The translations under genes were made by a program, and so were the position numbers. From a virus: a DNA stretch of 64,000 bases. The notes beneath the pieces are model-generated. The model made no database searches. It was not told where the DNA came from and saw only the letters and a list, made by a program, of their open reading frames with translations. Where the stretch lies: positions 40,364 to 104,363 of IMG/VR virus record IMGVR_UViG_3300045988_183523. One strand, given 5' to 3'. Of this stretch, positions 621 through 63,636 are shown piece after piece. Each line of letters begins with the position of its first letter. Position 1 is the stretch's first letter.

Positions 621-649
621 TTGAATTTTTTTGGAATGCACTATATAAT
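621..649 (+). promoter_or_regulatory. sigma-A-like promoter: TTGAAT, 17 nt, TATAAT. The -10 is embedded in a cACTATATAat copy of the recurrent motif.
   Basis: Read directly: ttgaat ttttttggaatgcacta tataat. It lies upstream of the GHKL ATPase gene. Confidence 0.35.
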
Positions 650-912
650 ATTATTGCAGAAGGAAAGTAATATTAGTATAGAAGTGAATGATATTATGTC
701 TGAAACAATTAAGTATGGTTAGCCTATTGATACTGTAATCATTTGAATTACTTGAGTAGGAAGCTCGGTATTTCGATGCCAAGTAGTTCACTGACAATAG
801 ACCGATTATTTGTACTAAAACAGAGCATCCATTGACTATTGGTAAATTTTATTTAAAATATTAGATATAAAGTGTTTGTCTATTATGAATAAGATTCAAT
901 GTCAATTATGAA

Positions 913-2184
913 ATGCTCGTTATTGAAATAAGGAGAATTCTTGACGGTTATTTTAAAGAAAAGAATATTGTAAATGATATGATAGATAATGAATTGTTAA
1001 TCAAATATAACTCTAACTTTAATATGAAAAAGAAAAAAATTAAGTTTAAAACAACGAATAAAGGACTTAAATTTTTTGAATATCGGTACACTAAATCCGA
1101 ATTCGGAATTGTCGATTTGATTGATTTATTGAATTTTTTATCATATGTATCAAAAAAAATATTGAGAAATTATCCAATTATAATAGACTTTAGAAAAACT
1201 ATTTTTTCTGATAAACTTACTTTTGTAATATTAGAATGTATTTTGTATTATTATATAAATGATATGAAATGTTCTAATATTATGCTAACGCTTAGCCAAA
1301 AAGCAGAAATTCATACGCAAGGTTTAAATTTATCTCCACTAAATGCATTATGTGACACAACCAAATCTACTGAACAGAGATATGATTTATTTAATAAAAA
1401 ATATAATATTGATTTATCAAAAAAACATTTTAGAAAAATCATTTTGAAAGAAAGTGATTCTTTTGAGCATCCTGTAACAAGTTTATTAATGCAAGATATA
1501 GAATCTTATTTAAAAATTCAAGAAGTATCTAAAGAGTACACTGATACTATTCCAAGTGTAATTTCTGAATTGGTTGACAATGTAATTGAACATTCTAATT
1601 CGGATTGTTTGATTGATATTGATATTACCCCAAGTACATTCAAAAAAATGGATTCCATCACAAATGAATATTCCAATGAAAATTTTTATGCTTTGAATGT
1701 TGTAATTGTAAATTTGTCAGATAAATTATTAGGTGAAAATTTAACTCATAAAATAAAAGGATATAAGAGTACTGATGAAATTCCACAAAGATACAAAGCT
1801 GTAAAAAATGCTTGTAATAATTTACAAAATATATTTGATGATAACTATAACGAAGATGACTTTTTTGTGATTGCTTCTTTCCAAGATAAAATATCAGGTC
1901 GAATTGATTCAAATACAACCGGTGGAAAAGGACTAACGGAATTGCTGAAATCTTTACAAGAAAATGGAAATACTGATTCTTATAATTGTTATATGTACTC
2001 AGGAAATAGTGTTTTATGGTTTAAAAAAGACTATCTAAATTATAATTCTGATGGTTGGATTGGCTTTAATAATCAAAACAACTTTTTTGATTGTAAACCC
2101 GATTCCGAAGTTTTCACTAAAATACCGTTTTATTTTCCCGGAACTGCATATAATTTGAATTTTGTAGTAAAAAAATCGGAATGA
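913..2184 (+). CDS. GHKL-superfamily (histidine-kinase-like) ATPase, stand-alone
   Basis: N-box-like ELVDNVIEH and G2-box-like TTGGKGLTELL motifs. No kinase HisKA/DHp region. The start is uncertain (in-frame ATG at 913 and at 979). Confidence 0.5.
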   Translation: MLVIEIRRILDGYFKEKNIVNDMIDNELLIKYNSNFNMKKKKIKFKTTNKGLKFFEYRYTKSEFGIVDLIDLLNFLSYVSKKILRNYPIIIDFRKTIFSDKLTFVILECILYYYINDMKCSNIMLTLSQKAEIHTQGLNLSPLNALCDTTKSTEQRYDLFNKKYNIDLSKKHFRKIILKESDSFEHPVTSLLMQDIESYLKIQEVSKEYTDTIPSVISELVDNVIEHSNSDCLIDIDITPSTFKKMDSITNEYSNENFYALNVVIVNLSDKLLGENLTHKIKGYKSTDEIPQRYKAVKNACNNLQNIFDDNYNEDDFFVIASFQDKISGRIDSNTTGGKGLTELLKSLQENGNTDSYNCYMYSGNSVLWFKKDYLNYNSDGWIGFNNQNNFFDCKPDSEVFTKIPFYFPGTAYNLNFVVKKSE

Positions 2185-2239
2185 TATTTTCCAATTATTT
2201 TAATAAAAATAACTAATGAACTAACGGAGGATAAATTTT

Positions 2240-2527
2240 ATGAATACAATTAAATTAGATTTCAAAAAAGATTTAACAAAGCTTGCAGGAAATAATTTTG
2301 GAAAACAAACTTATGCCAATCAAGTTTCACATATAATATCAAAAAAACCAGATGATAATTACATTATTATTATACCTGAACGAATTGACAGAATTGCATC
2401 ATCTTTCATCCAAGGCTTCTTTGATTCTTATATTAAAAATTATGGCTTTTCTGCTTTGGCAAATCATATATCTATTCAATCTTCAATTAAAGATATTAAC
2501 GAGTTAATAAATGACAGTTTGGAGTAA
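2240..2527 (+). CDS. STAS-like (DUF4325-like) small protein, partner of the upstream GHKL ATPase
   Basis: 95 aa. IIIIPERIDRIASSFIQGFF resembles the conserved 'vDFegV..issSFadE.f' core of STAS-like DUF4325 proteins. It lies 55 nt downstream of the ATPase with an RBS (ggagga). Confidence 0.4.
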   Translation: MNTIKLDFKKDLTKLAGNNFGKQTYANQVSHIISKKPDDNYIIIIPERIDRIASSFIQGFFDSYIKNYGFSALANHISIQSSIKDINELINDSLE

Positions 2528-2530
2528 AAA

Positions 2531-2962
2531 ATGAAGGATAGTACAGTTATTTCTTGTCTTGCTTTATTTATATCAATAATTACACCATATCTTAATTTCT
2601 TGATGAACAGACAAGTTAACAATATTTCATTGGAATCACAACATTTAGAAGATATATATGTTGAATTTTTGACTAAAAAAATACCTGAAGCTAAGCGTGA
2701 TATAATATACAAAAACAACTATTTTCAAGGCAGTTATCCATTACAAAAAGTATTAGTTGAATTGCTTAAGGCTTTGAGTTTTTATAAATATATTGATAAT
2801 GAATTTTACACAGATGCTAAAATTGCAATACAAAAATTAGAAGATTATATTGTTTTGTACGAAAGTGAAATTTTTAAAAATTCAGAAGTTCCTCGCATTG
2901 AAATTGAAAAAAATTTGTCAGATATATATTGTATTATAAATAATAAGTATAAAAACGGTTAG
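2531..2962 (+). CDS. hypothetical protein (143 aa), third gene of the GHKL/STAS operon
   Basis: ORF starts 4 nt after the previous stop. N-terminus is hydrophobic and the rest is helical and charged. Confidence 0.4.
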   Translation: MKDSTVISCLALFISIITPYLNFLMNRQVNNISLESQHLEDIYVEFLTKKIPEAKRDIIYKNNYFQGSYPLQKVLVELLKALSFYKYIDNEFYTDAKIAIQKLEDYIVLYESEIFKNSEVPRIEIEKNLSDIYCIINNKYKNG

Positions 2963-2968
2963 TATATT

Positions 2969-2995
2969 ATAAAATATAATAATATAATCATATAT
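2969..2995. repeat. 27-bp direct repeat, copy 1 (TAAAATATAATAATATAATCATATATA)
   Basis: Identical 27-mer at 4702-4728. Both copies start 7-19 nt after a + strand stop codon. Confidence 0.6.
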
Positions 2996-3087
2996 AGATA
3001 CACTATGATTTTCAGAAAGAGCCTTTGCGTTTTTTTGCAAGCAAAAAATTTTGAAAAAAACTGAATTGTAAAAATATAAAAATAATA

Positions 3088-3116
3088 TTGACTTTTAAAA
3101 AAATATTGTATATACT
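3088..3116 (+). promoter_or_regulatory. sigma-A-like promoter: TTGACT, 17 nt, TATACT
   Basis: ttgact tttaaaaaaatattgta tatact. It reads into the tandem-repeat array. Confidence 0.45.
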
Positions 3117-3137
3117 AAACTATACAAACGATATTTT

Positions 3138-3262
3138 GAACACTATTTTTTAACACTATTTTTTAACACTATTTTTTTACAAACTATTTTTTTTTACAAA
3201 CTATTTTTTTACAAACTATTTTTTGAACACTATTTTTTGAACACTATTTTTTTTACAAACGA
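3138..3262. repeat. Tandem array of ~9 units of 13-17 bp with two unit types, (G)AACACTA-T6-8 and ACAAACTA-T6-9, arranged 3+3+3
   Basis: Read directly: gaacactatttttt aacactatttttt aacactattttttt acaaactattttttttt acaaactattttttt acaaactatttttt gaacactatttttt gaacactatttttt gaacactatttttttt acaaacg. Confidence 0.8.
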
Positions 3263-3265
3263 ATT

Positions 3266-3301
3266 AAAGAGCAGAAGAGGGTATTACCTTTTCTGCTCTT
3301 T
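3266..3301. terminator. Bidirectional rho-independent terminator between convergent genes
   Basis: aaagagcagaa-gagggtattacc-ttttctgctcttt. It is an 11-bp stem with A/T runs on both sides. Confidence 0.6.
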
Positions 3302-4768: not shown

Positions 4769-4911
4769 CTATTTGGCAGTCTTTGTAGCTCATAATTGGT
4801 AATAATTACCATATTTTCCAATATTTACTTGTTGTTTAAGCAAAAAAACGGTATTAAAATTAAATTATAAACAAAAAGCACATTGAAAAAATGTATTTTT
4901 AGTAAAAAATT

Positions 4912-4919
4912 ACTATATA
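4912..4919 (+). promoter_or_regulatory. Recurrent promoter-like motif copy (aaaaaTTACTATATAc)
   Basis: See the recurrent-motif finding. It lies upstream of 4977/5090. Confidence 0.35.
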
Positions 4920-4976
4920 CTGTCAGAACGAAAAATAATATTTTTCACAAACTAAAAAATATTGAGGCGATTATAT

Positions 4977-6562: not shown

Positions 6563-6927
6563 TAAATTGTGTTACATTTTTTATCAACAACGAGGGAATC
6601 TTTTGTATTATTTTATTTTGTATTTTTACTAAAAATGCAAAATTCTGTTGTTTGTGGATTTTTCTATACTGATTTATACAAAAGAAATTATATGGATAAA
6701 TACAACATTTTTTTATGTGTTTTTTGTTTTTGGTTACTATATATGATTAAAGAAGCTTATATAAGTTGTTTTAAAAGTTTCTTTACGAATAACCAATGTG
6801 TTAAGTGAACAAGTGTTATTCTACACTAATTGTTTTGATTTGTCTACAGTTATATTTTTCCAATTTGTGAAAAATATATTAACTTTTCAAAAATGATAAA
6901 ATAAATTTTCAGATTTTTAAAAATATT

Positions 6928-6935
6928 ACTATATA
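6928..6935 (+). promoter_or_regulatory. Recurrent promoter-like motif copy (tttttaaaaatatTACTATATAtat)
   Basis: See the recurrent-motif finding. Confidence 0.35.
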
Positions 6936-6944
6936 TATCATGAA

Positions 6945-7258
6945 AAGGTTAATAAGCCTTTTAGGTAGAATTAGCTACCAGAAGCTATTGCTAAACATTT
7001 ATGTTGGATAGTAATGAATTAACAAAGGTTAAATAGTTAGTCCGCTTGCAACTATGCCAGAGCATGAGATAGAGCTATTTAACAATGTTTAACTTTGTAA
7101 TTTGAAGTTTTAGAACTATCTGAAATTACATGATACTAAAAGCGCAAAAGGATGTGGAACGAATGACCGGAATGGTTTTAGAACTGCATGAATTGCATGA
7201 TACTAAAAGCGAAAGACAAAATTAGTATCATAAAGTCCTAAAAGCTTTTAGGATTTTA
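6945..7258 (+). ncRNA. Candidate ~300-nt structured non-coding transcript or leader (promoter motif to hairpin terminator)
   Basis: No ORF of 60 aa or longer. Internal direct repeat CATGATACTAAAAGCG at ~7131 and ~7196, hairpin tgatactaa...ttagtatca, and terminator-like tcctaaaag-cttttagga-ttttat at 7236-7258. Confidence 0.2.
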
Positions 7259-7496
7259 TGATGTTAATTTAAAACATCATTGAACCTTGAAAATTGAATA
7301 TTGATAGTTTTTAAAAAATATAGTTTCTCTGAAAAATGAGATTTTTTAGAAGAAAAACCGAACATAAAAAAAGGCTGAAAAGCCTTGATTTTACTACGGT
7401 TTTAGTTGAAATTTGAGTACCTATATGGTATAATAAAAGTAGATAAAGGAAACTATCGAATACGGTAGGCGGTTAGTCCTCTCAATTACAAAATTT

Positions 7497-7519
7497 GGGA
7501 GGATAATAAAATTCCTCCC
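7497..7519 (+). promoter_or_regulatory. Hairpin GGGAGGA-taataaaatt-CCTCCC. It pairs an SD-like sequence with an anti-SD immediately upstream of a second GGGAGGA RBS.
   Basis: Read directly. The second gggagga (7535-7541) is the RBS of the 21-codon ORF. Confidence 0.3.
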
Positions 7520-7548
7520 TTAAATAAATATGAAGGGAGGATGATATT

Positions 7549-7614
7549 ATGGAATATTCAGTGATAACAACATTAATACTTATTATTACTCTAATTCTCA
7601 TAATAAAAAAATAA
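7549..7614 (+). CDS. 21-aa hydrophobic peptide MEYSVITTLILIITLILIIKK (type I toxin-like or leader peptide)
   Basis: Strong RBS gaagggaggatgatattATG. Single TM-like helix ending in KK. Flanked by inverted repeats GGCGGTTAGTCC (7468-7479) / GGACTAACCG (7659-7668) and AACCGCC (7609-7615). Confidence 0.3.
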   Translation: MEYSVITTLILIITLILIIKK

Positions 7615-7765
7615 CCGCCCAGTCTGAATGAGCGATTATTTTTAAAAATAAAACACATGGACTAACCGTCTATCCGACAAGTCCTTTATCTATAAGTATA
7701 TTAACACAGGAAATAATATTTGTCAAGATTATGAATATAATCTGAATTTATAAGGAGGAAAATAA

Positions 7766-17366: not shown

Positions 17367-17424
17367 AAAATTCGTTAATTTTTTTGAGTTTTTATTTCAA
17401 AAGTGGGTATTTTTAAGAAATTTT

Positions 17425-17466
17425 TACCATTCAAAATTAGAAAGGTAAAAATACCCAGTTTTTTCC
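17425..17466 (+). terminator. rho-independent terminator (nested hairpins)
   Basis: tgggtattttta...taaaaataccca followed by gtttttt. Confidence 0.55.
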
Positions 17467-23142: not shown

Positions 23143-23171
23143 AAATATCTGTGTATTTTTTAAAATTGATT

Positions 23172-23179
23172 ACTATATA
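23172..23179 (+). promoter_or_regulatory. Recurrent promoter-like motif copy (tttttaaaattgatTACTATATAcc)
   Basis: Upstream of the SpoVG-like gene. Confidence 0.35.
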
Positions 23180-23233
23180 CCATACGAGGTAGAGGAGATA
23201 CCTTGAAAAAATTAAGGGAAAGGAGAGAACGAT

Positions 23234-24773: not shown

Positions 24774-25205
24774 GTGAAAAATACGAGCATGAAAATTGCA
24801 TTGTTGTTAATGTGTATTGTTGTTATTTCTTCTACAAGTGCTTATGCAGCGACATACAAAGTCGAAGAAGGAAAAGAAGAAACAATTACAGTTAATGTTG
24901 ATTATAACAAGACAACTGCAGAAAGCACTACGAAAAGTGAAACTCAATATACAGAAAATAATACCACTAATGTTATAACTACTGAAATCGTTAGTACAAC
25001 AGAACCAAATATTGTGCAAACAACAAGTGAAACTATTGCCACAGAAACCACACCGAAGCCAACAGAAACCAAGGCAACAAAAAAATATAAAAAAGAAAAA
25101 AGTGTAAAAACCGGTTTCAACACTTTACCGTTATATTTTACAATAATAGGACTGGCAATATTATTGATTATCATGAAAAGAAAGAGGGTGCGAATAAATG
25201 AGTAA
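24774..25205 (+). CDS. Small surface protein (signal peptide, T/E-rich linker, SVKTG + TM + KRKR tail)
   Basis: GTG 24774 after ggggag RBS. ...EKSVKTG-FNTLPLYFTIIGLAILLIIM-KRKRVRINE (SVKTG at 25101-25115). The ORF-track start at 24726 lies inside the upstream hairpin. Confidence 0.5.
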   Translation: MKNTSMKIALLLMCIVVISSTSAYAATYKVEEGKEETITVNVDYNKTTAESTTKSETQYTENNTTNVITTEIVSTTEPNIVQTTSETIATETTPKPTETKATKKYKKEKSVKTGFNTLPLYFTIIGLAILLIIMKRKRVRINE

Positions 25206-37707: not shown

Positions 37708-37757
37708 TTAATAATTTGTAAATTCGTATGAGCATATAAAATTTTTGTTTAAAAATT

Positions 37758-37765: not shown

Positions 37766-37817
37766 CCTGTGAAATGAAAAATGAAAGAATATTAAGCCAT
37801 TAGAAAGGATAAATAAC

Positions 37818-38351
37818 ATGAGAGAAATTGTGTTTAGGGGAAAACCTGTTAATAAAGCAATTTATACAAATTTTGAAAAGAAATTCAAAAATGCCAGCTT
37901 TTTTAGTAATGGTTTTGTTTTCGGCTCGTTGGTCATATATGAAAATAAATATTATATTTGTCTAAATATAAAGTTAAATATGTCAGGAATCATATTTAAC
38001 AGTAACGAAAGTAATATGACAGCGACAATGATTGAGGTTATTCCTGAAACTGTAAGTCAGTTTACCGGCAAATATATTAATAACGCTCGACTCTTTGATG
38101 GAGATGTTTTAGAGTGGTGTGACGACTACGATGATAGTTGGGGATTCCCAAATACTGCTGTAACGAGAAGTGTTGTATCTTGGGATGAAAATGACAGTTG
38201 TTGGGTTTTAAAACATGACGGTAAGGACGAATGCATTTGCACATTCACTGAATATGATAAATCTGAGTGGGAAAATATGAATTTAATCGGAAATATTTAT
38301 GATAACCCGGAATTGTTATTGGATTATAACAAACAGGTTACTACCGTTTAA
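37818..38351 (+). CDS. YopX-family phage protein
   Basis: N-terminal MREIVFRGKP... and C-terminal ...NLIGNIYDNPELL are the hallmark ends of the YopX family (SPbeta-like phages). Confidence 0.65.
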   Translation: MREIVFRGKPVNKAIYTNFEKKFKNASFFSNGFVFGSLVIYENKYYICLNIKLNMSGIIFNSNESNMTATMIEVIPETVSQFTGKYINNARLFDGDVLEWCDDYDDSWGFPNTAVTRSVVSWDENDSCWVLKHDGKDECICTFTEYDKSEWENMNLIGNIYDNPELLLDYNKQVTTV

Positions 38352-48222: not shown

Positions 48223-48351
48223 ATGGGTAAAGAATATAAAAAGTTACTATCTGAACGATTAAAAGATAAAGATTTCAAAAAAGAATATGATAAATTAATA
48301 CCGGAATGTGAAAAAATCAAGCAGGATTTAAGGAAAGGAAAAAACAAGTGA
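48223..48351 (+). CDS. small basic protein (42 aa) MGKEYKKLLSERLKDKDFKKEYDKLIPECEKIKQDLRKGKNK
   Basis: RBS caggaggaataattaATG, 3 nt after the previous stop. Confidence 0.3.
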   Translation: MGKEYKKLLSERLKDKDFKKEYDKLIPECEKIKQDLRKGKNK

Positions 48352-48441
48352 AAATTTGTCTCATTGATGTTGACAGTCATAATTTTCCAAATCTTGCTTT
48401 GATGATTATATTTAGAAGTCGTGATTATTTTAATAATTATA

Positions 48442-48470
48442 ATAAACTTTGTTGACTTATGCTAATGGTT
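48442..48470 (+). promoter_or_regulatory. Near-consensus sigma-A promoter: TTGACT, 17 nt, TATAAT
   Basis: ttgact tatgctaatggttcgca tataat. Confidence 0.55.
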
Positions 48471-48476
48471 CGCATA

Positions 48477-48616
48477 TAATGAAGATTATAAATAATTATA
48501 CAAAAAATTGTTTTAAAACTGAATATCGGATACGACTCTCCGCACCTCTATTTTGTATGTGTCACAGTGAGAGATAATTTAACAGCTACAGAATAATTTC
48601 TGTGGCTGTTTTTTTG
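48477..48616 (+). ncRNA. Candidate ~140-nt small RNA (consensus promoter to intrinsic terminator, no ORF)
   Basis: Terminator acagctacag-aataatttc-ctgtggctgt followed by ttttttt at 48583-48616. The only ATG overlaps the -10. Confidence 0.35.
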
Positions 48617-48635
48617 TAATTTTGTAATTTTTTTA

Positions 48636-48643
48636 CTATATAA
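48636..48643 (+). promoter_or_regulatory. Recurrent promoter-like motif copy (tttttTTACTATATAag)
   Basis: Upstream of 48673. Confidence 0.35.
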
Positions 48644-48672
48644 GTATGTAATAGAAAAAATATAATCTATTT

Positions 48673-50398: not shown

Positions 50399-51593
50399 AA
50401 AAAATAAAATTTTATGCGTTATTTTATCATTCATTGTTGCATTATCTTCTTTACCAATAATAAGCTATGCCGGAACTCCTAATATTCCAAAAAGTTTTTC
50501 TGTTGGTTTAGGAGGAACATTGACTATACCAGTTGATTTGTCAAATTGTTCAGGAAAGCAAAAAAAATGGAAGATCAATGGTGATGGTTCTGTTGCAACA
50601 ATATCTTCAAATGGGGATGTTACAGGAAACAATTTAGGAACTGTGTCAGCCTATTGTTCAACGAGTGCCGGAGAAATCGCAATCTGCAAAGTTACAGTTG
50701 TTCCAAGTGCAAATATTTCTATTGATAAAGCTAATGTATCACTGAAGATAAGTGATACTGTTAAGTTAAATAGCACTGTTTTTCCGGAAAACGCAGTTCA
50801 AAATGTTATTTGGAATTCACAAAATAATTCTGTTGCAACTGTTACTAACGATGGAATTATTACAGCAGTAGGAAAGGGTTTTACAAAAATTACCTGTATT
50901 TCAACTGATGGAACAAATAATAATGCAACATGTAACATTACCGTTATAGAACAAACAACTAAACCATTAAAAAAACAACGAAAAAACAAATCAACTACTA
51001 AAAAGCGGAAAACAGAAGTGAAAACCACAACCACAAAAAAAGAAACTGTTTTGCAAACAGATAAAACAACAAAGAAAAAAATAAAATCTACTTTTGACAA
51101 TTCTGTGAAAAGAAATGAAGATAATATAACTGAAGCTAAGACAACTGCTGCTTCTACAACAAAAAAAATAACTTCAAAAATAAATTTAATTGAAAGTACA
51201 ACTGCATCACAAAATGAGAGTGAAAATGAATTTGATATAAATAATGGTGATGAAAGCGTAGCAGACAGCGAATATTCTTTATTTGCAATCAGTAAAAGTA
51301 AAAAGCCAATTCAAATTACTTGGAATAAATTAGAATCGGTATCAGGTTATGAATTATATCAATCAGATAAAGCAAATTTATCAAAACTCAGCTTAATATA
51401 TGACGGACCACAAAATTATTACAATAAGCATTTATATCTAAATGGAAAAAACTATTTTTTTGTAGTTCGTGGATATAGTTTCAACGATAAAGGTGAAAAA
51501 ATATATATGAATTATTCCAAAGCAATTTACATAAAAGCAGTAAACAAATCAATAATAAGAAAAATATTTGATAAATTACAAAAAGATGTGTAA
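50385..51593 (+). CDS. Secreted protein: signal peptide, two Big_2 Ig-like domains, T/K-rich linker and a C-terminal Fn3-like domain
   Basis: MIMIRKNKILCVILSFIVALSSLPIISYA. Big_2-like VSLKISDTVKLNSTVFPENAVQNVIWNSQNNSVATVTNDGIITAVGKGFTKITC. Confidence 0.55.
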   Translation: MIMIRKNKILCVILSFIVALSSLPIISYAGTPNIPKSFSVGLGGTLTIPVDLSNCSGKQKKWKINGDGSVATISSNGDVTGNNLGTVSAYCSTSAGEIAICKVTVVPSANISIDKANVSLKISDTVKLNSTVFPENAVQNVIWNSQNNSVATVTNDGIITAVGKGFTKITCISTDGTNNNATCNITVIEQTTKPLKKQRKNKSTTKKRKTEVKTTTTKKETVLQTDKTTKKKIKSTFDNSVKRNEDNITEAKTTAASTTKKITSKINLIESTTASQNESENEFDINNGDESVADSEYSLFAISKSKKPIQITWNKLESVSGYELYQSDKANLSKLSLIYDGPQNYYNKHLYLNGKNYFFVVRGYSFNDKGEKIYMNYSKAIYIKAVNKSIIRKIFDKLQKDV

Positions 51594-51608
51594 AAACTAT
51601 TTTATTTT

Positions 51609-51616
51609 ACTATATA
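51609..51616 (+). promoter_or_regulatory. Recurrent promoter-like motif copy (ttattTTACTATATAac)
   Basis: Upstream of hpf. Confidence 0.35.
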
Positions 51617-51725
51617 ACATCAGAAAAGAAAAACAGCATATTTTTTACTTCGAATATATTTTATAAAAAATATGTAAAAAAGCAAAATAATAACTATATA
51701 ACATTGTAACAAAAGAGGAAATGAA

Positions 51726-55712: not shown

Positions 55713-57389
55713 ATGATAAAAAATAAACTTATAAATAAAATTATAGCTGTTTCTTTGACGGCACTGACATTATCAAGTTCTGCAGTACCGGCTATGGCAG
55801 CTACACAAAATGTTAATTCAATAGCTTCAGTAGCAGAAGATGTTTCGAATTCACAAAAAGTAGGTCAAGATAAAAATCAAAGTAAGCAAACTAAATATAG
55901 TGAATATCAAGATGATACAAATACATCAACTGATGTGTATGTCACACAAACATCTACATTTTCTGTAACAGCACCAGTAGTTGCAATACTCAATGGTCAA
56001 CCTGATGACAACGGTAATTATTCAGGTGATGTAAAATACAGTATTAAAGGTAATATTGCATCAAACGAAATTGTTAAAGTAGTTCCAGATAATTCGTTAT
56101 TCTTATCTCAATCCGGCAAAGATGATATTGAATGTTCAATTGTTGGAAAAAATAATGAAGTTGCAAAAACAGAATTCTCATATGCAGATGGTCTTCGTGC
56201 TGAAAAAGAGTTAAGTCAAGAATACACTATAACTACAAAAGATATTACAGCTGGTTCTTGGCACGGTCAATATAATACAAATATTTCACTTGAAAACAAT
56301 CTTAAATGGTATGATATTACAGATAAGATTGATTTAGCAAACGGTGAAAATGCTCGATGGAATATGTACGGTATACTGATGAAAGGTGATTCAAAAAACG
56401 AGTATAAAACAGTAAATATTCCTGTTCAAGAAGGGGAAAAATATAGAGTAACTGGTGTCGTTTATGGTAGTGATAGATTGTTAACGGCAAGATCTGAACT
56501 TGGATACGGTTCTCAATATACAATTGATAATCAAATGATTCCGGCAAACAATATCAATGGATCAGGAACTATTAAAGAGCAAGTGTTGACTATACCAGAA
56601 GGTGCAAAATGGTTATGTGTATCATCACCGAAGTTTGCTTTGTCACAGTTCAAACTTGAAAAACTTAGTAATGACTCTGTAAACATTACTCCTTATTCAA
56701 GTGAAAATTTCAAATGGCAGTTTGATAAACCATATTTAACATTTACTGTTGATGATACCAATGACAATATTGACGAGATTGCAAAAGTTTTTGCAAAACA
56801 CAATATGCCTTGCAATTACGCAACACAGTATTCAAGAATTGACGGCACTGCAAATAACGGCGAAACAAAAAAAGATATATTATTGAAAGCCCAAGAATCC
56901 GGTAGTGAAATTTTGGCTCATCATTATCTTGTTCTTGATGATAAATCAACAGAAAATGATTATACCGAAATATACGAAAATACAAAAACACAACTTGAGA
57001 AAGCTGGTTTTAATGTAAATGGTATTATTGTTTCGGGAGGCTCAACATATTCGAAACAAAATTTTTCTAAATCAACAAAGCATGCTTACGCTGCAGGTTA
57101 CTTATATTCGGATTTAACAGCGACAAATAATGTATATAATCATAGATATTATAACAACAGAATTTGGAATGACTCTGCCGATATTAGTTATTGGAAAACT
57201 CAAATTGATAATTTGGTGAATGACGGCTCTGGCTGGTTAAATATTGGCTCACATGTTGATGCTGATTGGTTGAGTGGTCATACAATGAATCCTGAAATGA
57301 TTGATGAAATACTTACTTATTGTGAAGAAAAAGGCGTTGAGGTTACAACTTGGAATTCACTTTACAATAATTGTGGCGTAAACAAATAA
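55713..57389 (+). CDS. Secreted protein: shared N-terminal module + middle beta-rich domain + C-terminal polysaccharide-deacetylase (CE4/NodB)-like domain
   Basis: Signal peptide ...AVPAMA|AT. Shared module. C-terminal LTFTVDDTNDNIDEIAKVFAKHNMPCNYAT...ILAHHY resembles the CE4 TFDDG/HxxH motifs. Confidence 0.5.
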   Translation: MIKNKLINKIIAVSLTALTLSSSAVPAMAATQNVNSIASVAEDVSNSQKVGQDKNQSKQTKYSEYQDDTNTSTDVYVTQTSTFSVTAPVVAILNGQPDDNGNYSGDVKYSIKGNIASNEIVKVVPDNSLFLSQSGKDDIECSIVGKNNEVAKTEFSYADGLRAEKELSQEYTITTKDITAGSWHGQYNTNISLENNLKWYDITDKIDLANGENARWNMYGILMKGDSKNEYKTVNIPVQEGEKYRVTGVVYGSDRLLTARSELGYGSQYTIDNQMIPANNINGSGTIKEQVLTIPEGAKWLCVSSPKFALSQFKLEKLSNDSVNITPYSSENFKWQFDKPYLTFTVDDTNDNIDEIAKVFAKHNMPCNYATQYSRIDGTANNGETKKDILLKAQESGSEILAHHYLVLDDKSTENDYTEIYENTKTQLEKAGFNVNGIIVSGGSTYSKQNFSKSTKHAYAAGYLYSDLTATNNVYNHRYYNNRIWNDSADISYWKTQIDNLVNDGSGWLNIGSHVDADWLSGHTMNPEMIDEILTYCEEKGVEVTTWNSLYNNCGVNK

Positions 57390-57415
57390 TTTCTATTTAA
57401 TTCAGGAGGTTTTAT

Positions 57416-59584
57416 ATGAAAATAAAAAAAATAATCTCTATTATTTTAGCTAATATAATTATTTTTTCTTATGCAACAACAGCTTATGCGGCAACAGAAT
57501 ACAAAAATTCATCCGGTTCTGTTGCGGAGGATATAACGAACACCGATATAGTAGGTGTTGATGAAAATCAAAATGCTCAAACAAAGTATAATGAATTTAA
57601 TGTTGATAACAGTGCTATAACAAGAGTATATGTTTCGCAAACATCAACATTTTCGGTAACAGCACCAGTAGTTGCAATACTCAATGGTCAACCTGATGAC
57701 AGCGGTAATTATACAGGCAATGTCGAATATTCAGCAGTAGGAAATATAGCTTCAAACGAAAAAATTGTTGTAACTCCTGATGACACTTTTAATCTTTCGC
57801 AAAACGGAAAAGATGATATTAACTGTTCGATCACATTAAATGATGATAATAATTCAAAAACAGATTTTACATATGTTAACGGACTTCGAGAGGATAATTC
57901 ACTAAAACATACTTATACACTTTCAACTAAAGATATTTCAGCAGGTTCATGGCACGGTCAATACAATACAAATATCTTTTTGGCAAGTAATGAACTATAT
58001 TATTCTTCAATTGATAAAGCAGTAAATGATGCTAACAATTTGACAACTCAAAATGCTGATGTTTTAACTAAAAATTCAAAAAGCGCAGAAGCAAGTGTAT
58101 TTGTTCAAGACAATGTTACATACATTACTTTAATGAATGATGTAACTAATGCTGATAATATTGTTCTTACAAACGATACAGTCCTTGACCTTAATTTTCA
58201 TACCTTGTCTTTTGAATCAGGTAAATATCTTGAATTTAACAAAAATTTGACAGTATACGATGGTGTTATAAATATTGATGATTCACATTACGGAATACTT
58301 GGTGCAAAAGATAATACAGAAAACTCATTTGTACTAAATAATGTTACATTTAATCAAAATATAAGTGAAAATATAAGTTATAATTCTTTTTGTATTGATA
58401 TAAGCACTTCAAATAGTAATTGTTCAAATTTAAAAATTTATCAAAAAGGAAAAGGTAATTCATCATATGGTGTATACGGATATACGAACAGAAATAAAGA
58501 TGAAAAAGCACAAGGATTTTTAGAACATTTTATTTTTGAAAGCACAGTTGAAAATCCTTTGAAAATTCGTGGAACTCAAAATGGTGGAAATGATGAGATC
58601 AGTAATGCAAAAATAAAAATAAATCTACAAAATAATTCTTCTATATCAACCGGAATATATAGTGCTAATACTTCATCAAACCTAAAAATATTAGATAGTG
58701 ATGTAGATATTTATTCGACAAGTGGGTATGTTAGTGGAATAGAATCACGCTCTATTAATACAACCATTAAAAATTGTAGTGTAAATAGTGACGATTTTAC
58801 AAAAAAATCAGACAGAGATGGTAGTACCGGAGTAGCCATCATTCTGCAAAACAAACCTACAACATCAAGTAAAACAATAGTTGAAGATTGCACCATTTAT
58901 GGAAAACAGTGGGGGTTGGAAACTCCGGCTTATAGCGAAGTTGTAATTAAAAACTGTGATGTGACTTCCACAAATCATACAGCATATATTTGCGGTAATG
59001 GTGATGTCTATAATTCAACATTTAAAATTGCTAACAGAGATAAATATCTAAATGGCACTCTCGACACCCCATATGGATTCTATGCCGGAAGTCCATACGA
59101 TAAAGTTAAAACACATATTGTTAATATCTATAATTGCGAAATTGGCAATCCGATTGACACATCAGGAAAAAACATTCCTGAAAATGGTGTAACGGCTAAA
59201 AATAATGGCTATTATCCACCAAAGGAAATAAATATTTATGATTCAGTAGTATATCAAGGTCGTCAAGCAGTATTTAATTTTAACGCTTCTTCGCCATATA
59301 TAAAGAATTTTGCAAAATTTAATTTATATGGAAATACAAAACTAATGACAAATTCGAAAACAGAATTATCAAAAAATCAAGTTGCGTTTGATATTGAATG
59401 GTTTAAAAATCCAGATATTACTTACAATTTAAAAGGTGATTGGGAAGCAGCCAAGGATGATTATATTTATTATGGAATAATGAGTAGTCCGAATAAACTT
59501 ATTAACGCAAATATGTATTGTAAAGAAAATGCTCCTAAATCTGAAGCTTATGAAGATTATGCAAATGTGTACGATTACAGATGA
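57416..59584 (+). CDS. Secreted protein: shared N-terminal module + right-handed beta-helix (pectate-lyase-like) repeats
   Basis: Signal peptide ...TTAYA|AT. Shared module. N/S/T/G-rich ~22-aa periodic repeats. The C-terminal ~90 aa are homologous to the C-terminus of 59696. Confidence 0.5.
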   Translation: MKIKKIISIILANIIIFSYATTAYAATEYKNSSGSVAEDITNTDIVGVDENQNAQTKYNEFNVDNSAITRVYVSQTSTFSVTAPVVAILNGQPDDSGNYTGNVEYSAVGNIASNEKIVVTPDDTFNLSQNGKDDINCSITLNDDNNSKTDFTYVNGLREDNSLKHTYTLSTKDISAGSWHGQYNTNIFLASNELYYSSIDKAVNDANNLTTQNADVLTKNSKSAEASVFVQDNVTYITLMNDVTNADNIVLTNDTVLDLNFHTLSFESGKYLEFNKNLTVYDGVINIDDSHYGILGAKDNTENSFVLNNVTFNQNISENISYNSFCIDISTSNSNCSNLKIYQKGKGNSSYGVYGYTNRNKDEKAQGFLEHFIFESTVENPLKIRGTQNGGNDEISNAKIKINLQNNSSISTGIYSANTSSNLKILDSDVDIYSTSGYVSGIESRSINTTIKNCSVNSDDFTKKSDRDGSTGVAIILQNKPTTSSKTIVEDCTIYGKQWGLETPAYSEVVIKNCDVTSTNHTAYICGNGDVYNSTFKIANRDKYLNGTLDTPYGFYAGSPYDKVKTHIVNIYNCEIGNPIDTSGKNIPENGVTAKNNGYYPPKEINIYDSVVYQGRQAVFNFNASSPYIKNFAKFNLYGNTKLMTNSKTELSKNQVAFDIEWFKNPDITYNLKGDWEAAKDDYIYYGIMSSPNKLINANMYCKENAPKSEAYEDYANVYDYR

Positions 59585-59594
59585 TTGTAATAAT

Positions 59595-59630
59595 AAAAAA
59601 CCAGTTACATTTTGTAATTGGTTTTTTATT
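59595..59630 (+). terminator. rho-independent terminator
   Basis: aaaaaaccagttaca-ttt-tgtaattggtttttt. Confidence 0.6.
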
Positions 59631-59658
59631 ATTTTTTATGTAGTTTTTAATTTTTTTT

Positions 59659-59666
59659 ACTATATA
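59659..59666 (+). promoter_or_regulatory. Recurrent promoter-like motif copy (ttttttttTTACTATATAat)
   Basis: Upstream of 59696. Confidence 0.35.
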
Positions 59667-59695
59667 ATCTTGTAAACAAAGAAGGAAGTGAAAAA

Positions 59696-62326
59696 ATGAA
59701 AAGAAATAAATTTTGGAAATTGATAGCTTTTTGTATGATGATAATTACAACATTATCAATATCGACTCCTGCAATGGCAGCAAGTAAATATATGAATTCA
59801 TCTGGTTCGGTTATTGAAGATATAGTTAACAGCGTAAAAACAGGAAAAGATAAAAATCAAAACGAAGAAACAAAATATAAAAGTTATTCAAGTGATAGTT
59901 CGACAACAACAAGCGTATATGTTTCGCAAGCTTCTACCTTTTCTGTTATAGCACCTGTAATTGTCACAATGAATGGAGAAGCAGACAAAAATGGAAATTA
60001 TACAGGTACAATTAAATACAGTGTTACCGGAAATATCGCCGGCAATGAAGTAGTTACAGTAGAACCGGATTCATCCTTTGAATTAAAACAACCTGAAAAA
60101 GAAAATATTTTATGTAATATTGTATCAAATGATGGAAACACAGCAAAAACTAAATTTACTTACGGTGAAGGATTAAAAATAGGTAATACAGTATCACAAG
60201 AATACACTTTAACTACAAAAGATGTAACGGCAGGTTCTTGGGTTGGATATTTTTCAACAAATATTTCTATTTCTGATTCGGAAAAATTTTATTCTTCAGT
60301 TAAAAAAGCCGTTGATGATGCTAATAATTTAACAACCGAGAATGCTGACATTTCTGTAAGTAATGTGAATAACGCAGCAGCAAGTCTTTTCGTGTCGAAT
60401 AACAATGCCTATATAACTTTATTAAATGATGCAAGTGATGTTGAAGCACTAACATTAAACAATAATACGGTTTTGGATTTACAAAATAATTCATTATCTT
60501 TTAAAACAGGCAAAAATCTTGTTTTTAATAAAGATTTTACAATTCTAAACGGAAATGTTATTTCGACTGATACAAATAAAACAATTCAAGGCTCAACAAG
60601 CAATACTAATGGTGAATTTTATTTGAATGACATTAAACTTACACAAAATGTTACTTCATCAATCAGTTTTACTGCAATAGGCGTTGATATAAGCACTCTA
60701 AATTCAACATTTAGAAATTTTAGTATAATTCAACAGGGGAGCGGCAATAACTCATACAATACATTAGGAATTGCAACACGAAATAAAAGTACGGATTCAA
60801 ACACACTAATTGATAATTTTAACTTTGATTCAACAGTAACTGGCGGAAATTATCAGACTGCTGTTCAGCCATTTGGAAATACTGTAATAAGTAATTTTAA
60901 CATTATTATAAATACTGTTAATGCAGGTACAAGGGCATTTAATGCTCCACAATCAGCTGTTAATTTCACTGCTAAAAGTGGAAATATTGATTTGAAAACA
61001 AATCGTGAAATAAGCGATAATGGAACATTTGCAGTAAATATATGTGCTTCTGTGGCAAGTAATATAAAAGATGTAAACATAAATTTAAAAGGAAACACTT
61101 CTGAAATAAGAGGTATACAGATTCCATCTAATTCTTACAATAATAAGTTAGAAAATGTAACAATAGATCTCGAATCAAATTCAAATAATATATTCGGAAT
61201 TGCAACTTTTGGTAATGATTTAACAATGATTGATTCAAATATTCAAGTAAACTCGAAAAATGCTCAAAATGGTAACGCAATTTGCGGAATTACCGGAAAT
61301 AATAAATATACAAATGAATATTTAAAAGTAATCAATTCAAAAATTTCTGTTAATTCTGAAGGAAATAATCAACCTATTGTTAACGGAATAGAACTTTGGA
61401 AATATGATTTAGATGTCAATGGAAGTGAAATCACAACGAATTCTATCAACTCAAATCAGGATTACGGAATTCAAACTACTAATGAAAATATAAATATTGT
61501 AAATACTAATGTTACTTGCAATACGAAGAATGTAACCACCGGGGCTGCAGTTAAAGTTGAAAATGATTCAAATGTTTCAAATAAAAAAACCTATATAACA
61601 AAATCTGATATATATGGAACACATAATGGCGTTATTACATCGGAAAAAAATAAAACAGAAATTAAAAATTCAAATATTACTTCTGCAACTGAACCAATCA
61701 CAATTAAAGAAAATACTGATGTTTATGATTCAAAAATTAAAACTATCAATAGAGATAAGTATAGTGCCAAAGAAATAGGTCCTTCATTTTTTTCAGTAAA
61801 AATCATAAGAAGTGATAATAATGATTCGGCTCGTAATACAATAAATTTCTATAATTGTGAAATAGGAAATCCTATGGATGATGTTTCAAATTATTCATAT
61901 TACACTTTTCTTACCTATAATGATAGTTGTGCATCATGTCCTTTTGATGTTAACATTTATGATTCAATAACATATAAAGGTAAAACAAATTATATTTATT
62001 TAGGTACACCTATTTCATCTTTTGTTAAAAAGGGAACAAAAAAATCGACAACATATAATCTATATGGTTCAACAAAAATAATGAAAGATAATCAAACTGA
62101 AATATCGAAAGAACAGATTGCATCGGATATTGAATACTTTAATGATCAAAATAACTGGACTTATCCAATAAGAGGTAATGCAAGTGATTCTACACCAGAT
62201 GATGAAAAGTATTATGCATCATTATGGACTCCTAATAGAATTATTGAAGCGCATTATTATTGTGCAGACGGCACACCAAAGTCATATGCATACGAAGATA
62301 CATGTGGATTACATGATAAACGATGA
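59696..62326 (+). CDS. Secreted protein: shared N-terminal module + long beta-helix repeat region (876 aa)
   Basis: Signal peptide ...STPAMA|AS. Shared module with AGSWVGYFSTNI. Beta-helix-like repeats. C-terminus homologous to 57416. Confidence 0.5.
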   Translation: MKRNKFWKLIAFCMMIITTLSISTPAMAASKYMNSSGSVIEDIVNSVKTGKDKNQNEETKYKSYSSDSSTTTSVYVSQASTFSVIAPVIVTMNGEADKNGNYTGTIKYSVTGNIAGNEVVTVEPDSSFELKQPEKENILCNIVSNDGNTAKTKFTYGEGLKIGNTVSQEYTLTTKDVTAGSWVGYFSTNISISDSEKFYSSVKKAVDDANNLTTENADISVSNVNNAAASLFVSNNNAYITLLNDASDVEALTLNNNTVLDLQNNSLSFKTGKNLVFNKDFTILNGNVISTDTNKTIQGSTSNTNGEFYLNDIKLTQNVTSSISFTAIGVDISTLNSTFRNFSIIQQGSGNNSYNTLGIATRNKSTDSNTLIDNFNFDSTVTGGNYQTAVQPFGNTVISNFNIIINTVNAGTRAFNAPQSAVNFTAKSGNIDLKTNREISDNGTFAVNICASVASNIKDVNINLKGNTSEIRGIQIPSNSYNNKLENVTIDLESNSNNIFGIATFGNDLTMIDSNIQVNSKNAQNGNAICGITGNNKYTNEYLKVINSKISVNSEGNNQPIVNGIELWKYDLDVNGSEITTNSINSNQDYGIQTTNENINIVNTNVTCNTKNVTTGAAVKVENDSNVSNKKTYITKSDIYGTHNGVITSEKNKTEIKNSNITSATEPITIKENTDVYDSKIKTINRDKYSAKEIGPSFFSVKIIRSDNNDSARNTINFYNCEIGNPMDDVSNYSYYTFLTYNDSCASCPFDVNIYDSITYKGKTNYIYLGTPISSFVKKGTKKSTTYNLYGSTKIMKDNQTEISKEQIASDIEYFNDQNNWTYPIRGNASDSTPDDEKYYASLWTPNRIIEAHYYCADGTPKSYAYEDTCGLHDKR

Positions 62327-62327
62327 A

Positions 62328-62368
62328 ACAAAAGAGAGAAATCGTTATTGATTTCTCTCTTTTGTTAT
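62328..62368 (+). terminator. rho-independent terminator
   Basis: acaaaagagagaaatc-gttatt-gatttctctcttttgt. Confidence 0.75.
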
Positions 62369-62387
62369 GTACTTTTTTGTTTTTTTT

Positions 62388-62395
62388 ACTATATA
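62388..62395 (+). promoter_or_regulatory. Recurrent promoter-like motif copy (ttttttttTTACTATATAaac)
   Basis: Upstream of the sortase gene. Confidence 0.35.
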
Positions 62396-62421
62396 AACAT
62401 GAATAGCAAAGGAGGATTTTT

Positions 62422-63291
62422 ATGAGTACAAAATCAATAAAAATAGTGACAGTTTTAATTTCGATAGCACTAATTACCTGTGTAGCGTTTTTGTTAATAT
62501 TTAAAATAAATGTTAATAATTCGTATAAACAAACTAATCAAGTTATGCAGAGTGTATTGGTGAAAAATTCAAAAGATGAAAATGATGTCGATTGGGAAAA
62601 ATTGAAAGCGAAAAATAAAGATGTTATTGGCTGGCTGTCGATAAACGACACAACAATAAATACGCCTATTGTTCAATCAACAGATAATTCATATTACTTA
62701 AAGAAAAATTTTAACAAAAAATATTCTTTTAACGGTAATCCATTTATTGATTACCGTAATGATATGAATATAGGTGATACTAATACTATTATATACGGTC
62801 ATAATATGAGAGATAGTCAATTATTTGGAGAATTACTTGACATATATAAAAACTCACAAACGGCAAGTAATTACAAAATAATAAAATTGAAAACACCTAA
62901 AAGTGTACACAAATATGCAATAATTGGAGCTTTTTATACCAATTCAGAGCCTAAAGATGATAATGGATATGTTTTTGAATACAATTCACCTAATTTAGAC
63001 GAAGGCGATTATGCTGACTTTTTAGCACAACTTGAACAGAGATACATATTTACATCCGGTGTTGATGTGAATATGTCTGATAAACTTCTAACTCTTTCTA
63101 CATGTGCTTATCAATTTAAAAATGAGAGATTTGTAGTTGTCGCAAGAGAACTTCGTAATGGTGAATCAGAAAATTCAATAAAATTCAATTTTGAAGATGT
63201 AAATAATCCGAGGTATCCCGACAAATGGTATAAAGTAAACCACAAAAATAACATTTACAAAAATTTGCCTAAATGGTCATTAAGCGAGTAA
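62422..63291 (+). CDS. srtB: Class B sortase
   Basis: N-terminal TM. DVIGWLSINDTTINTPIVQ...NTIIYGHNM (catalytic His)...LLTLSTC (catalytic Cys)...RFVVVAREL (Arg) align closely with S. aureus SrtB. Confidence 0.85.
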   Translation: MSTKSIKIVTVLISIALITCVAFLLIFKINVNNSYKQTNQVMQSVLVKNSKDENDVDWEKLKAKNKDVIGWLSINDTTINTPIVQSTDNSYYLKKNFNKKYSFNGNPFIDYRNDMNIGDTNTIIYGHNMRDSQLFGELLDIYKNSQTASNYKIIKLKTPKSVHKYAIIGAFYTNSEPKDDNGYVFEYNSPNLDEGDYADFLAQLEQRYIFTSGVDVNMSDKLLTLSTCAYQFKNERFVVVARELRNGESENSIKFNFEDVNNPRYPDKWYKVNHKNNIYKNLPKWSLSE

Positions 63292-63328
63292 TACATATTT
63301 TGAAAAAATATAGGAGGTGAAAAATACG

Positions 63329-63526
63329 ATGTTTAAAAAATTGATTAACGAAATCAAAAAACTTGAATCTTTAAAACAAGCTAAACTTGAACAAAAAGCT
63401 AAACTTGATGCAGAAATCAAAATTATTGAAGCTAAATTAAAGCCAAAATATGCAGCAAGAACCAAATATGAAGAAGCTGAAAAAATGGCTCAAGAAGCTT
63501 TAGATTTTGATACGAAGGAAGAATAA
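63329..63526 (+). CDS. small coiled-coil protein (65 aa from ATG 63329)
   Basis: RBS aggagg. K/E/A-rich heptads. Confidence 0.35.
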   Translation: MFKKLINEIKKLESLKQAKLEQKAKLDAEIKIIEAKLKPKYAARTKYEEAEKMAQEALDFDTKEE

Positions 63527-63628
63527 TTTGGAATAATCGTTTGCAATATTCTCGTGAGTTTGGTTATGAGAGTACTTACTAATTACAGACAATTCTAAAA
63601 AATAATTATGTAAAAACGCATTTTTTTT

Positions 63629-63636
63629 ACTATATA
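63629..63636 (+). promoter_or_regulatory. Recurrent promoter-like motif copy (ttttttttTTACTATATAacc) followed by >360 nt without an ORF to the window end
   Basis: Read directly. Confidence 0.3.

Follow-up and report, generated by a model that had tools for sequence, protein, structure and literature searches.

A recurrent two-block motif with sigma-70-type promoter geometry on a large conjugative element of gut Firmicutes

Does a short sequence that recurs upstream of unrelated genes in one stretch of DNA mark a common class of promoters, and by what could such promoters be read? The question was raised by a 64,000-nucleotide (nt) stretch of the IMG/VR record IMGVR_UViG_3300045988_183523 (positions 40,364 to 104,363), called here the window, whose carrier is a large conjugative element of at least ~123 kb, with an integrase, from uncultured low-GC gut Firmicutes. 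An original prediction, made from the letters of the window, had listed 13 cores of the motif and proposed a family of -10-centred promoters with only an A/T tract upstream. The analysis reported here indicates that the sites are very probably bipartite promoters, and we lean, with reserve, towards the fuller statement that they form a family of sigma-70 geometry which is private to the lineage of the element and is served by a dedicated reader.

The abundance of the core ACTATATA was compared with the mean of 100 dinucleotide shuffles. Nineteen copies were found in the window against 4.17 expected, a number that none of the 100 shuffles reached, and 17 of them lie on the + strand. The longer TTACTATATA, which is the top recurrent intergenic 9-/10-mer of the window, occurs 12 times against 0.45 expected, and all 12 copies are both intergenic and on the + strand. 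The window has 29% GC and a GC skew that is positive throughout, and nearly all of its genes are on the + strand; the sites of the family are confined to the intergenic DNA, which makes up 11-14% of its length. With no copy of TTACTATATA in the coding bulk or on the - strand, these counts show that the motif is not a by-product of AT-richness, as the original prediction had held.

Thirteen family members were retained in the window, with cores at 4912, 6736, 6928, 23172, 31150, 33235, 37758, 48635, 51609, 51693, 59659, 62388 and 63629, and all of them are on the + strand and intergenic, as had been claimed. The 13 cores listed initially are all present, two of them displaced by one position (33235 instead of 33236 and 48635 instead of 48636), but two do not belong to the family. 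Site 640 (GCACTATATAAT) is devoid of TTAC and of the upstream block described below and is part of a canonical TTGAAT-17-TATAAT promoter, and site 4254 (ATACTATATA) carries ATAC in place of TTAC, with no upstream block in register. Members 6736 (TTACTATATA) and 51693 (TAACTATATA, with TGTA in register) had been overlooked. The cores at 16766 (+, coding), 55624 (+, 3' end of a small open reading frame, ORF), 45927 (-) and 58656 (-) were considered as chance copies. With a position-weight matrix (PWM) built from the sites, the matches above the maximum of shuffled sequences were intergenic + strand sites only, a check which is partly circular because the matrix was built on the same sites. As expected in the original prediction, the motif is not limited to the window but extends over the whole element, with 18 family sites, or about one per 7 kb, in a composite of ~123 kb whose right end is seen only through a sister lineage.

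Alignment of the + strand sites on the core revealed a second conserved block, TGTA, upstream of ACTATATA (TATATA being numbered -12 to -7). It lies exactly 16 nt 5' of ACTATATA in 9 of the 13 window sites, and no other spacing was found among the 10-18 nt tested. The overall layout is T-n-TGTA, a 14-nt T-rich spacer, TTACTATATA, 7 nt and then A, with an extent of ~38 bp. The information profile was built from 16 non-redundant sites; two more were found later and bring the total to 18. In this profile the upstream block is represented by T-36 (14/16), T-34 (14/16), G-33 (12/16), T-32 (12/16) and A-31 (15/16), the spacer carries T-rich runs at -29 to -25 and -21 to -18 and is otherwise variable, and TTACTATATA at -16 to -7 shows a single deviation, an A at -15 (site 51693, TAAC). 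The seven bases that follow are variable. An A is then found 8 nt after TATATA in all 16 sites (17 of 18 with the later ones), and it has a purine (A or G) next to it in 15 of the 16. The initial description, in which the motif had no -35 element, is modified by the TGTA block, which occupies the -35 position at a fixed distance. The A5-tract of that description is present in only 4 of the 13 window sites, T-runs being found at most sites and several of these being terminator tails, and the base after TATATA, given as A or C only, can also be T. The presence of TTAC rather than TG ahead of TATATA was confirmed (TTAC at -16 to -13 in 17 of 18 sites), and the start expected about 7-8 nt past TATATA agrees with the place of the invariant A, which is the predicted start.

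Read as hexamers, the motif becomes nTGTAn, 17 nt, TATATA and a purine 8 nt downstream, which is the geometry of the sigma-70 family. The interval between the hexamers falls within 17 +/- 1 nt, and the sites are intergenic, oriented towards genes and provided with a purine ~7 nt past the -10 hexamer, at the predicted start. With TACTAT, the sole frame of the form TAnnnT, as an alternative -10, the spacer to the TGTA block would be of 14 nt and the invariant A would stand 11 nt downstream; the frames TACTAT and CTATAT were ruled out by the spacer length, by the missing A at -11 or by the distance to the invariant A. The region of the motif has a folding energy of 0 to -3.8 kcal/mol at the 13 window sites, with no common fold. 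The z-scores against shuffles range from -1.5 to +1.4 at 12 of these sites and reach -2.4 at the last one, and no stable hairpin of the type present in Frpo or N4 promoters was found at any of the 13.

The surroundings of the sites were also analyzed. A terminator-like hairpin is located at most 45 nt upstream at 8-9 of the 16 sites, and at six sites it ends 7-9 nt ahead of the TGTA block, so that the T8 run reported in front of the motif is the tail of a terminator. At seven sites, all provided with a good ribosome-binding site (RBS), 18-47 nt separate the predicted start A from the start codon, and at three sites 102-163 nt; the next ORF is more than 800 nt away from sites 6736 and 6928, and no ORF follows site 63629 before the window end. 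The proposed position 20-50 nt upstream of an RBS or start is therefore that of the seven sites, and not that of the three more distant ones or of 6736 and 6928. Promoter-like sites do stand ahead of many diverse transcription units, as had been stated. Judged from the sequence, there is good support for a promoter status: the sites have the position, orientation and geometry of promoters, about half of them stand behind terminators, the predicted start base is invariant and there is purifying selection. We infer promoter activity from these features.

The fate of the motif in related DNA was then followed. Among ~25 metagenome copies of the element, no substitution was found in any TTACTATATA, while changes do occur in the flanks and in the -35 block (TGTA becoming CGTA or TATA). 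In L187, a lineage whose type IV coupling protein (T4CP) is 93% identical, the orthologous promoter of the SpoVG-like gene retains TTACTATATACCnTAnGAG, although the intergenic region around it has diverged and has an 11-nt indel; tACGGTr replaces TGTA at both of the L187 sites. A lineage with 57% T4CP identity has its own family, GRAAA-N13-TGACTATATG, with five sites in 41 kb, all on the + strand and intergenic; L186 has 4 of them (0.04 expected) and L185 has 3 (0.13 expected), two sites being common to these overlapping sequences. Their positions, in the form GRAAA-N13-(r)TGACTATATG, are 6079, 9632, 23493 and 25674 in L186 and 22245 in L185, and a second TATATG is often next to the site. Two ACTATATATAG sites were found in a lineage with 60% T4CP identity. 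At 40-48% T4CP identity the sister elements have no TTACTATATA on the gene strand, the recurrent k-mers of the 47-48% and 41-45% lineages revealed no shared promoter motif, and IMG/VR contigs with modules 92-96% identical to those of the element have neither TTACTATATA nor an obvious shared promoter word. A scan of the IMG/VR collection for TGTA-N14-TTACTATATA gave mostly single chance copies in unrelated viral contigs, and only one match (L085) is the element itself. In this comparison the -10-zone block is kept over moderate distances and the -35-zone block is, at the few sites compared, lineage-specific. The family appears, as far as these sequences go, to be private to one lineage of the element.

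The sites were also compared with housekeeping sigma-A promoters. The -10 pattern TAnnnT is not respected, A being found instead of T at -7 in 18 of 18 sites; none of the 18 has a TG extension, and only T-34 and G-33 fit the -35 consensus TTGACA. The bases A-14, C-13, T-8 and A-7 are invariant and outside the consensus. Canonical promoters are present on the same element: TTGAAA-17-TG-n-TATAAT at 7406 for a small hydrophobic ORF, TTGACT-17-TATAAT at 48452 for a unit resembling a small RNA (sRNA), TAGACA-18-TATAAT at 4452 on the - strand for a DUF3825 gene, and TTGAAT-17-TATAAT at 621 for the 913-2962 operon. Several of the canonical promoters carry TGn, and they serve sRNA-like and small regulatory units. 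Canonical matches at >=11 of 12 positions are enriched ~4-fold in intergenic DNA (4 of 9 fall there, in 11.5% of the window), so the host sigma-A appears to be canonical and the element to hold two classes of promoters.

A reader was sought with Pfam on all window proteins and on ~70 flank proteins, with PHROGs and NCBIfam on a set of 72 proteins, with permissive Pfam searches (E up to 5) on 20 candidates and with scans for the DxDGD (YonO-type) motif. The outcome is the first of several points that weigh against a promoter family with its own reader. No sigma-70 r2/r4 domain, RNA polymerase or DxDGD motif was found in ~120 predicted proteins (~123 kb), by profiles from which a very divergent sigma could escape (Pfam, PHROGs, NCBIfam), and phmmer with the two sigma proteins of the Clostridium sporogenes plasmid pRSJ11_1 detected no homologue on the element; the proposed reader is therefore hypothetical. 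The arrangement nTGTAn-17-TATATA shares T-34, G-33 and four of the six -10 bases with the sigma-A consensus, a TTGTAA-type -35 is accepted as sigma-A-type in clostridia (PMC4031146), and the lineage-specific -35 blocks come from few sites (two in L187 and five in the L142 lineage). The suggestion that the rest of the element encodes a sigma factor received no support from the profile scans of ~123 kb, and a TcdR-like sigma as reader is unlikely, the group-5 consensus being different and no sigma gene having been found over this length. The only clear helix-turn-helix (HTH) protein is an orphan of 352 amino acids (aa), with a winged-helix/HTH at residues 235-271 (L188, 9935-10993), whose gene is just 5' of a 1.3-kb gap and of the genes of a type IV secretion system (T4SS). 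It is intact in the IMG/VR copy and frameshifted in scaffold_22 (L145, 465-1522). Its homologues form two clusters only in 5.8 billion proteins, the search with the frameshifted 174-aa fragment gave no match, and its AlphaFold model, with a predicted local distance difference test (pLDDT) of 36.6, is unusable.

The same sites could be ordinary strong sigma-A promoters with a weak TTGTAA-like -35, a curved T-tract, in the spacer or further upstream, as UP-like region and TATATA as -10, whose uniformity would reflect one optimal strength. The 17-nt geometry, the start 8 nt downstream and the failure to find an alternative sigma on the element are in agreement with this, as are T-34 and G-33, which fit the consensus, TTGTAA/TTGAAA being a -35 of the sigma-A type in clostridia (PMC4031146). 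We consider this unlikely all the same: all 18 sites are without T-7 and without a TG extension, none of the invariant bases A-14, C-13, T-8 and A-7 is known as an important contact of sigma-A, and ten identical bases in 18 copies are atypical of housekeeping promoters, which are degenerate. Furthermore, better canonical promoters (TTGAAA-17-TGnTATAAT, TTGACT-17-TATAAT) serve other units of the element, and the -35 is swapped for an unrelated sequence in sister lineages, a change incompatible with an invariant region 4 of sigma-A. Slightly less probable again is a set of operators through which one element-encoded repressor or class-II activator, acting on weak sigma-A promoters, would silence or switch the element together. 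A lineage-specific block in the -35 zone recalls immunity and operator specificities, the uniform sites stand ahead of functionally unrelated units, and the orphan 352-aa HTH protein encoded upstream of the T4SS genes could be the regulator; but the most invariant part of the sites is the -10 zone with the start A and not a dyad, the symmetry being limited to GTA/TAC (3 bp), and the candidate protein is frameshifted in one assembly and has an uninformative structure prediction (pLDDT 36.6).

The likeness of the sites could also come from recent common descent, if they were a copy-and-paste mobile promoter segment or a recombination scar. Several sites have similar T-rich spacers and gene-block indels do occur among element variants, but the likeness is limited to separate blocks, the spacer being variable and the flanks unrelated, the blocks stay invariant in ~25 copies and in the diverged orthologue while adjacent bases change, and the borders of the examined indels do not match the sites, all of which makes this explanation very improbable. 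Scarcely credible is a chance or compositional artefact, or a function in single-stranded DNA or RNA (a Frpo-like hairpin, a priming or nick site, RNA processing). Strings rich in TATATA abound in DNA such as this 29% GC window, and the complete motif turns up as single copies in many unrelated viral contigs; chance is effectively refuted by the excess of 12 over 0.45, by the lack of copies on the - strand or in the coding bulk and by the partner block at a fixed distance, and the folding, no better than that of shuffles (z around 0), speaks against a single-strand role. The sites downstream of terminators should, moreover, seldom be transcribed from upstream, which counts against a function in RNA.

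We therefore return to the promoter family with a dedicated reader. The invariant non-sigma-A bases, the coexisting canonical promoters and the lineage-specific -35 blocks argue for a dedicated specificity factor, to whose necessity, rather than to unaided sigma-A, we give an even chance. RNA polymerase would read the sites via this factor, an alternative sigma or a protein remodelling sigma-A, which would recognise the extended -10 block, the -35 block being a lineage-specific module; the swap of the -35 between close lineages would fit a co-evolving DNA-binding module (sigma region 4 or an activator). The A 8 nt past TATATA, with the purine after it, would be the likely start of transcription. 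About half of the sites are right behind terminators, which cuts the element into insulated units, and each unit would be restarted from the same type of promoter: surface proteins with the sortase, HPF, flotillin, the SpoVG-like gene, the phage-like block, a methylase, VirB4, the tRNA array and non-coding RNAs. The whole element could in this way be switched as a single regulon. A more speculative proposal, which we regard as possible and put forward tentatively, is that this family of gut elements has its own transcription-specificity system, in which a reader not recognisable by profiles (divergent sigma-like or non-sigma) would act with a 10-bp extended -10 (TTACTATATA, TGACTATATG, ACTATATATAG) and a fast-swapping -35 module; each lineage would then have a private, orthogonal promoter code.

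Should this be confirmed, the regulon of an uncultured conjugative element of more than 120 kb, widespread in the human gut, would be defined by a single short sequence. This would offer a handle on when the element expresses its genes, among them those for surface proteins, conjugation, ribosome hibernation and tRNAs. The invariant bases foreign to sigma-A and the -35 modules specific to each lineage could be used as bait for a new sigma-like or sigma-remodelling factor, the promoters might serve as compact orthogonal parts for low-GC Firmicutes, and the PWM lets transcription units be annotated in metagenomes without expression data.

Promoter regulons specific to mobile elements are already known, and the present one is a variant. 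In phage SPO1, sets of promoters are read by the sigma factors gp28 and gp33/34. Sigma genes on mobile elements are common in Firmicutes, with eight in C. difficile 630, where conjugative transposons carry them (PMC7438776), and such genes on related conjugative elements speak for a dedicated reader. Like the promoter sets of such sigma factors, the family comprises many near-identical two-block sites with sigma-70 spacing, co-oriented with genes and different from the host consensus; unlike them, it comes without a sigma gene detected on the element. On plasmid pRSJ11_1 (L198, NZ_CP013700.1, 225297-266700), a distant relative from a cultured host, the order is T4CP, S1-domain protein and two sigma-70-family genes. 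The window and this plasmid have homologous T4CP-S1 modules (E = 5e-17 between the S1 proteins). GTATATATA is enriched on the plasmid, with 17 copies where 2.9 are expected; they lie mostly on the gene strand, ~40-50 nt ahead of starts. This set may represent analogous plasmid-specific promoters in a tractable organism; GTATATATA is a lead only, being in part a palindrome and less bound to one strand.

TGTA / TTACTATATA matched no published consensus in a literature search for the 10-mer, which returned irrelevant matches only. The late promoters of phage T4, TATAAATA, are read by gp55 with gp33 and have no -35 element. The family resembles them by a long, near-invariant extended -10 box, away from TATAAT, that marks a whole class of genes, and a further likeness is that the sigma which reads the T4 promoters has diverged too far to be easily detected; it differs by its block at a fixed distance in the -35 zone, and no gp55-like protein was found with PHROGs. 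The cin-box of streptococci, TACGAATA with an upstream T-tract, is read by ComX/sigma-H, a small and highly divergent sigma. Both motifs have an extended -10 starting with TAC and a T-rich stretch upstream, and, as far as the sequences are compared, they differ after TAC, where TATATA stands in place of GAATA. Promoters of the T7/SP6 type (...ACTATAG) consist of one continuous block of ~23 bp which ends at the start G. The ACTATA string and the many identical copies on one strand are common to them and to the family, but in the family two blocks are separated by 14 nt and the predicted start follows after 8 nt; neither the single block from -17 to +6 of T7-like promoters nor a gene for a phage-type polymerase was found. 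Readings as sigma-E, -K, -F, -G, -H, extracytoplasmic function (ECF), Bacteroidetes or archaeal (TATA/BRE) promoters were ruled out by their sequences, the archaeal one being also countered by bacterial-type terminators and by the gene content. Promoters of group-5 (TcdR-like) sigma factors are TTTACA / GTTATA (PMC4031146). The low-GC clostridial setting, often plasmid-borne, and the conserved non-canonical -35 and -10 recall those of TcdR, BotR, TetR and UviA, but here the sequences are nTGTAn / TTACTATATA and no TcdR-like gene was found.

The nature of the carrier is highlighted by its genes. The products of the window include a VirD4-type T4CP, a SpaA/thioester adhesin, flotillin, YopX, GIY-YIG, RNA ligase, LemA, HPF, signal peptidase, three large secreted proteins and a sortase. 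The window is flanked on one side by T4SS genes (VirB4, cell-wall hydrolase) and on the other by genes for a topoisomerase, a RecD2-like helicase, ArdC, thymidine kinase and methylases. The far left end was reached via a 47.6-kb IMG/VR contig and carries a tyrosine integrase (PF00589) and then the anaerobic ribonucleotide reductase NrdD (L197, 1-3619), ~40 kb left of window position 1; this end suggests an integrative conjugative element of ~125 kb or more. Identical proteins are found on many human-gut metagenome contigs, commonly of 300-430 kb and up to 1.47 Mb, and public virus collections seem to hold pieces of the element as viral. The nearest plasmid coupling proteins, on plasmids of Subdoligranulum, Vescimonas and C. 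botulinum/sporogenes, are only 32-34% identical, and a T4CP scan of species genomes gave as sole match a 17-kb contig of a metagenome-assembled genome. Megablast gave no match for the first 25 kb of the window in PLSDB or for the 30-55 kb part in a phage collection. The gut conjugative megaplasmids named Hodor have 44-47% GC, Rep_3/ParAB genes and proteins of >7,000 aa, and were described with no promoter analysis (bioRxiv 2026, PMC12934698). The present carrier shares with them its very large size, its conjugative nature, the setting in gut Bacillota, the sortases, a surface-protein module and the partial filing as viral, and differs by its 29% GC and its tyrosine integrase.

Variants of the element differ by indels of gene blocks: ~4 kb of small ORFs, from the 122-aa gene to YopX (window 33640-37930), is missing in L002 (12334-12756), and an IS605-family TnpB gene is upstream of the 134-aa gene in L136 (1-411). 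In the gap 5' of the 414-aa gene that precedes the coupling protein, an inverted repeat, GTGGGTATTTTTA…TAAAAATACCCAG, was found at ~17403-17463, and related TTGGGTA/TACCCAA repeats occupy the same place in sister lineages (L141 8169-8672, L142 8309-8693, L187 4231-4506); it is a candidate oriT.

The 13 family promoters of the window, all on the + strand, are positioned as follows. The first one (4890-4927) has the TGTA block, TTACTATATA and the A at +8, and a 126-aa ORF at 5090 begins 163 nt downstream. The second (6714-6751), with a TGTG block and TTACTATATA, heads non-coding DNA. The third (6906-6943) has a weak -35 block, TTCA, and is followed by ~440 nt of non-coding DNA up to a terminator at 7371-7386. 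At 23150-23187, the promoter whose TTACTATATACCnTAnGAG is kept in the diverged orthologue of L187 lies 47 nt upstream of the SpoVG-like gene, and the one at 31128-31165 adjoins a terminator hairpin, with the flotillin gene 136 nt downstream. Weak -35 blocks are also found at 33213-33250 (CTAA), 21 nt upstream of the 122-aa ORF that heads the phage-like block, and at 37736-37773 (AAAA), 45 nt upstream of the YopX gene. The promoter at 48613-48650 abuts the terminator of the sRNA-like unit and precedes the 134-aa ORF. A tandem pair stands 5' of the HPF gene, with a distal member at 51587-51624 and a proximal one at 51671-51708 (TAACTATATA, TGTA at the exact spacing), 18 nt from the gene. The top PWM score belongs to 59637-59674, which adjoins a terminator and lies 22 nt upstream of the gene for the 876-aa secreted protein; 62366-62403 also adjoins a terminator, with the sortase B gene 19 nt downstream. 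The last one (63607-63644) heads a long non-coding stretch, where some variants have a five-tRNA array, followed by the topoisomerase gene.

This array (Gln-TTG, Gly-TCC, Asn-GTT, Met-CAT, Lys-TTT) is flanked by the sortase region and the topoisomerase gene and lies 470-870 nt past the counterpart of site 63629, at 2581-3083 in L144, 11681-12197 in L013 and 11680-12183 in L135, and is absent in the variants L012 and L137. The region 6943-7386 behind promoter 6928 is ORF-free over its ~440 nt, ends at the terminator mentioned above and contains a ~40-nt direct repeat at ~7107 and 7176 (ttttagaac…catgatactaaaagcg); it is a candidate non-coding RNA. The sRNA-like unit at 48452-48610 starts with its TTGACT-17-TATAAT promoter, has a strong terminator hairpin ~100-130 nt later whose T-tail runs into promoter 48635, and is preceded just upstream by a 42-aa ORF (48224-48352). 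Rfam gave no family above threshold on the window, these two units included. In the region 7406-7645, a canonical extended -10 promoter, a 21-codon hydrophobic ORF (MEYSVITTLILIITLILIIKK, ~7549-7614) and a terminator hairpin look like a type I toxin module.

Upstream of the first family promoter, the operon 913-2962 behind the canonical promoter 621 encodes a 423-aa protein and membrane proteins of 95 and 143 aa. The GHKL label given earlier to the 423-aa protein was not confirmed, no Pfam match being found, and a weak DUF4325 (STAS-like) match (E = 0.02) was obtained for one member, not identified, of the 72 scanned proteins. Were a GHKL/STAS pair present, it would be reminiscent of the partner-switching modules which control sigma factors; no sigma gene is near this operon. 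At 3123-3260, ~8 tandem units of 13-17 nt (AACACTATTTTTT / ACAAACTATTTTTTT) adjoin the DUF3825 gene (- strand) and are flanked by a promoter-like sequence at 3088 (TTGACT-17-TATACT) and by a bidirectional terminator-like hairpin at ~3262-3297; they could be iterons, a partition site or a small RNA built of repeats. Large secreted proteins were also noted. The 1971-aa protein encoded at 25198-31113 has a signal peptide and no Pfam domain, and no Pfam match was found either for the secreted proteins of 558, 722 and 876 aa encoded at 55713-62326 or for a 761-aa one encoded upstream of the window, the four having an N-terminal signal/leader in common.

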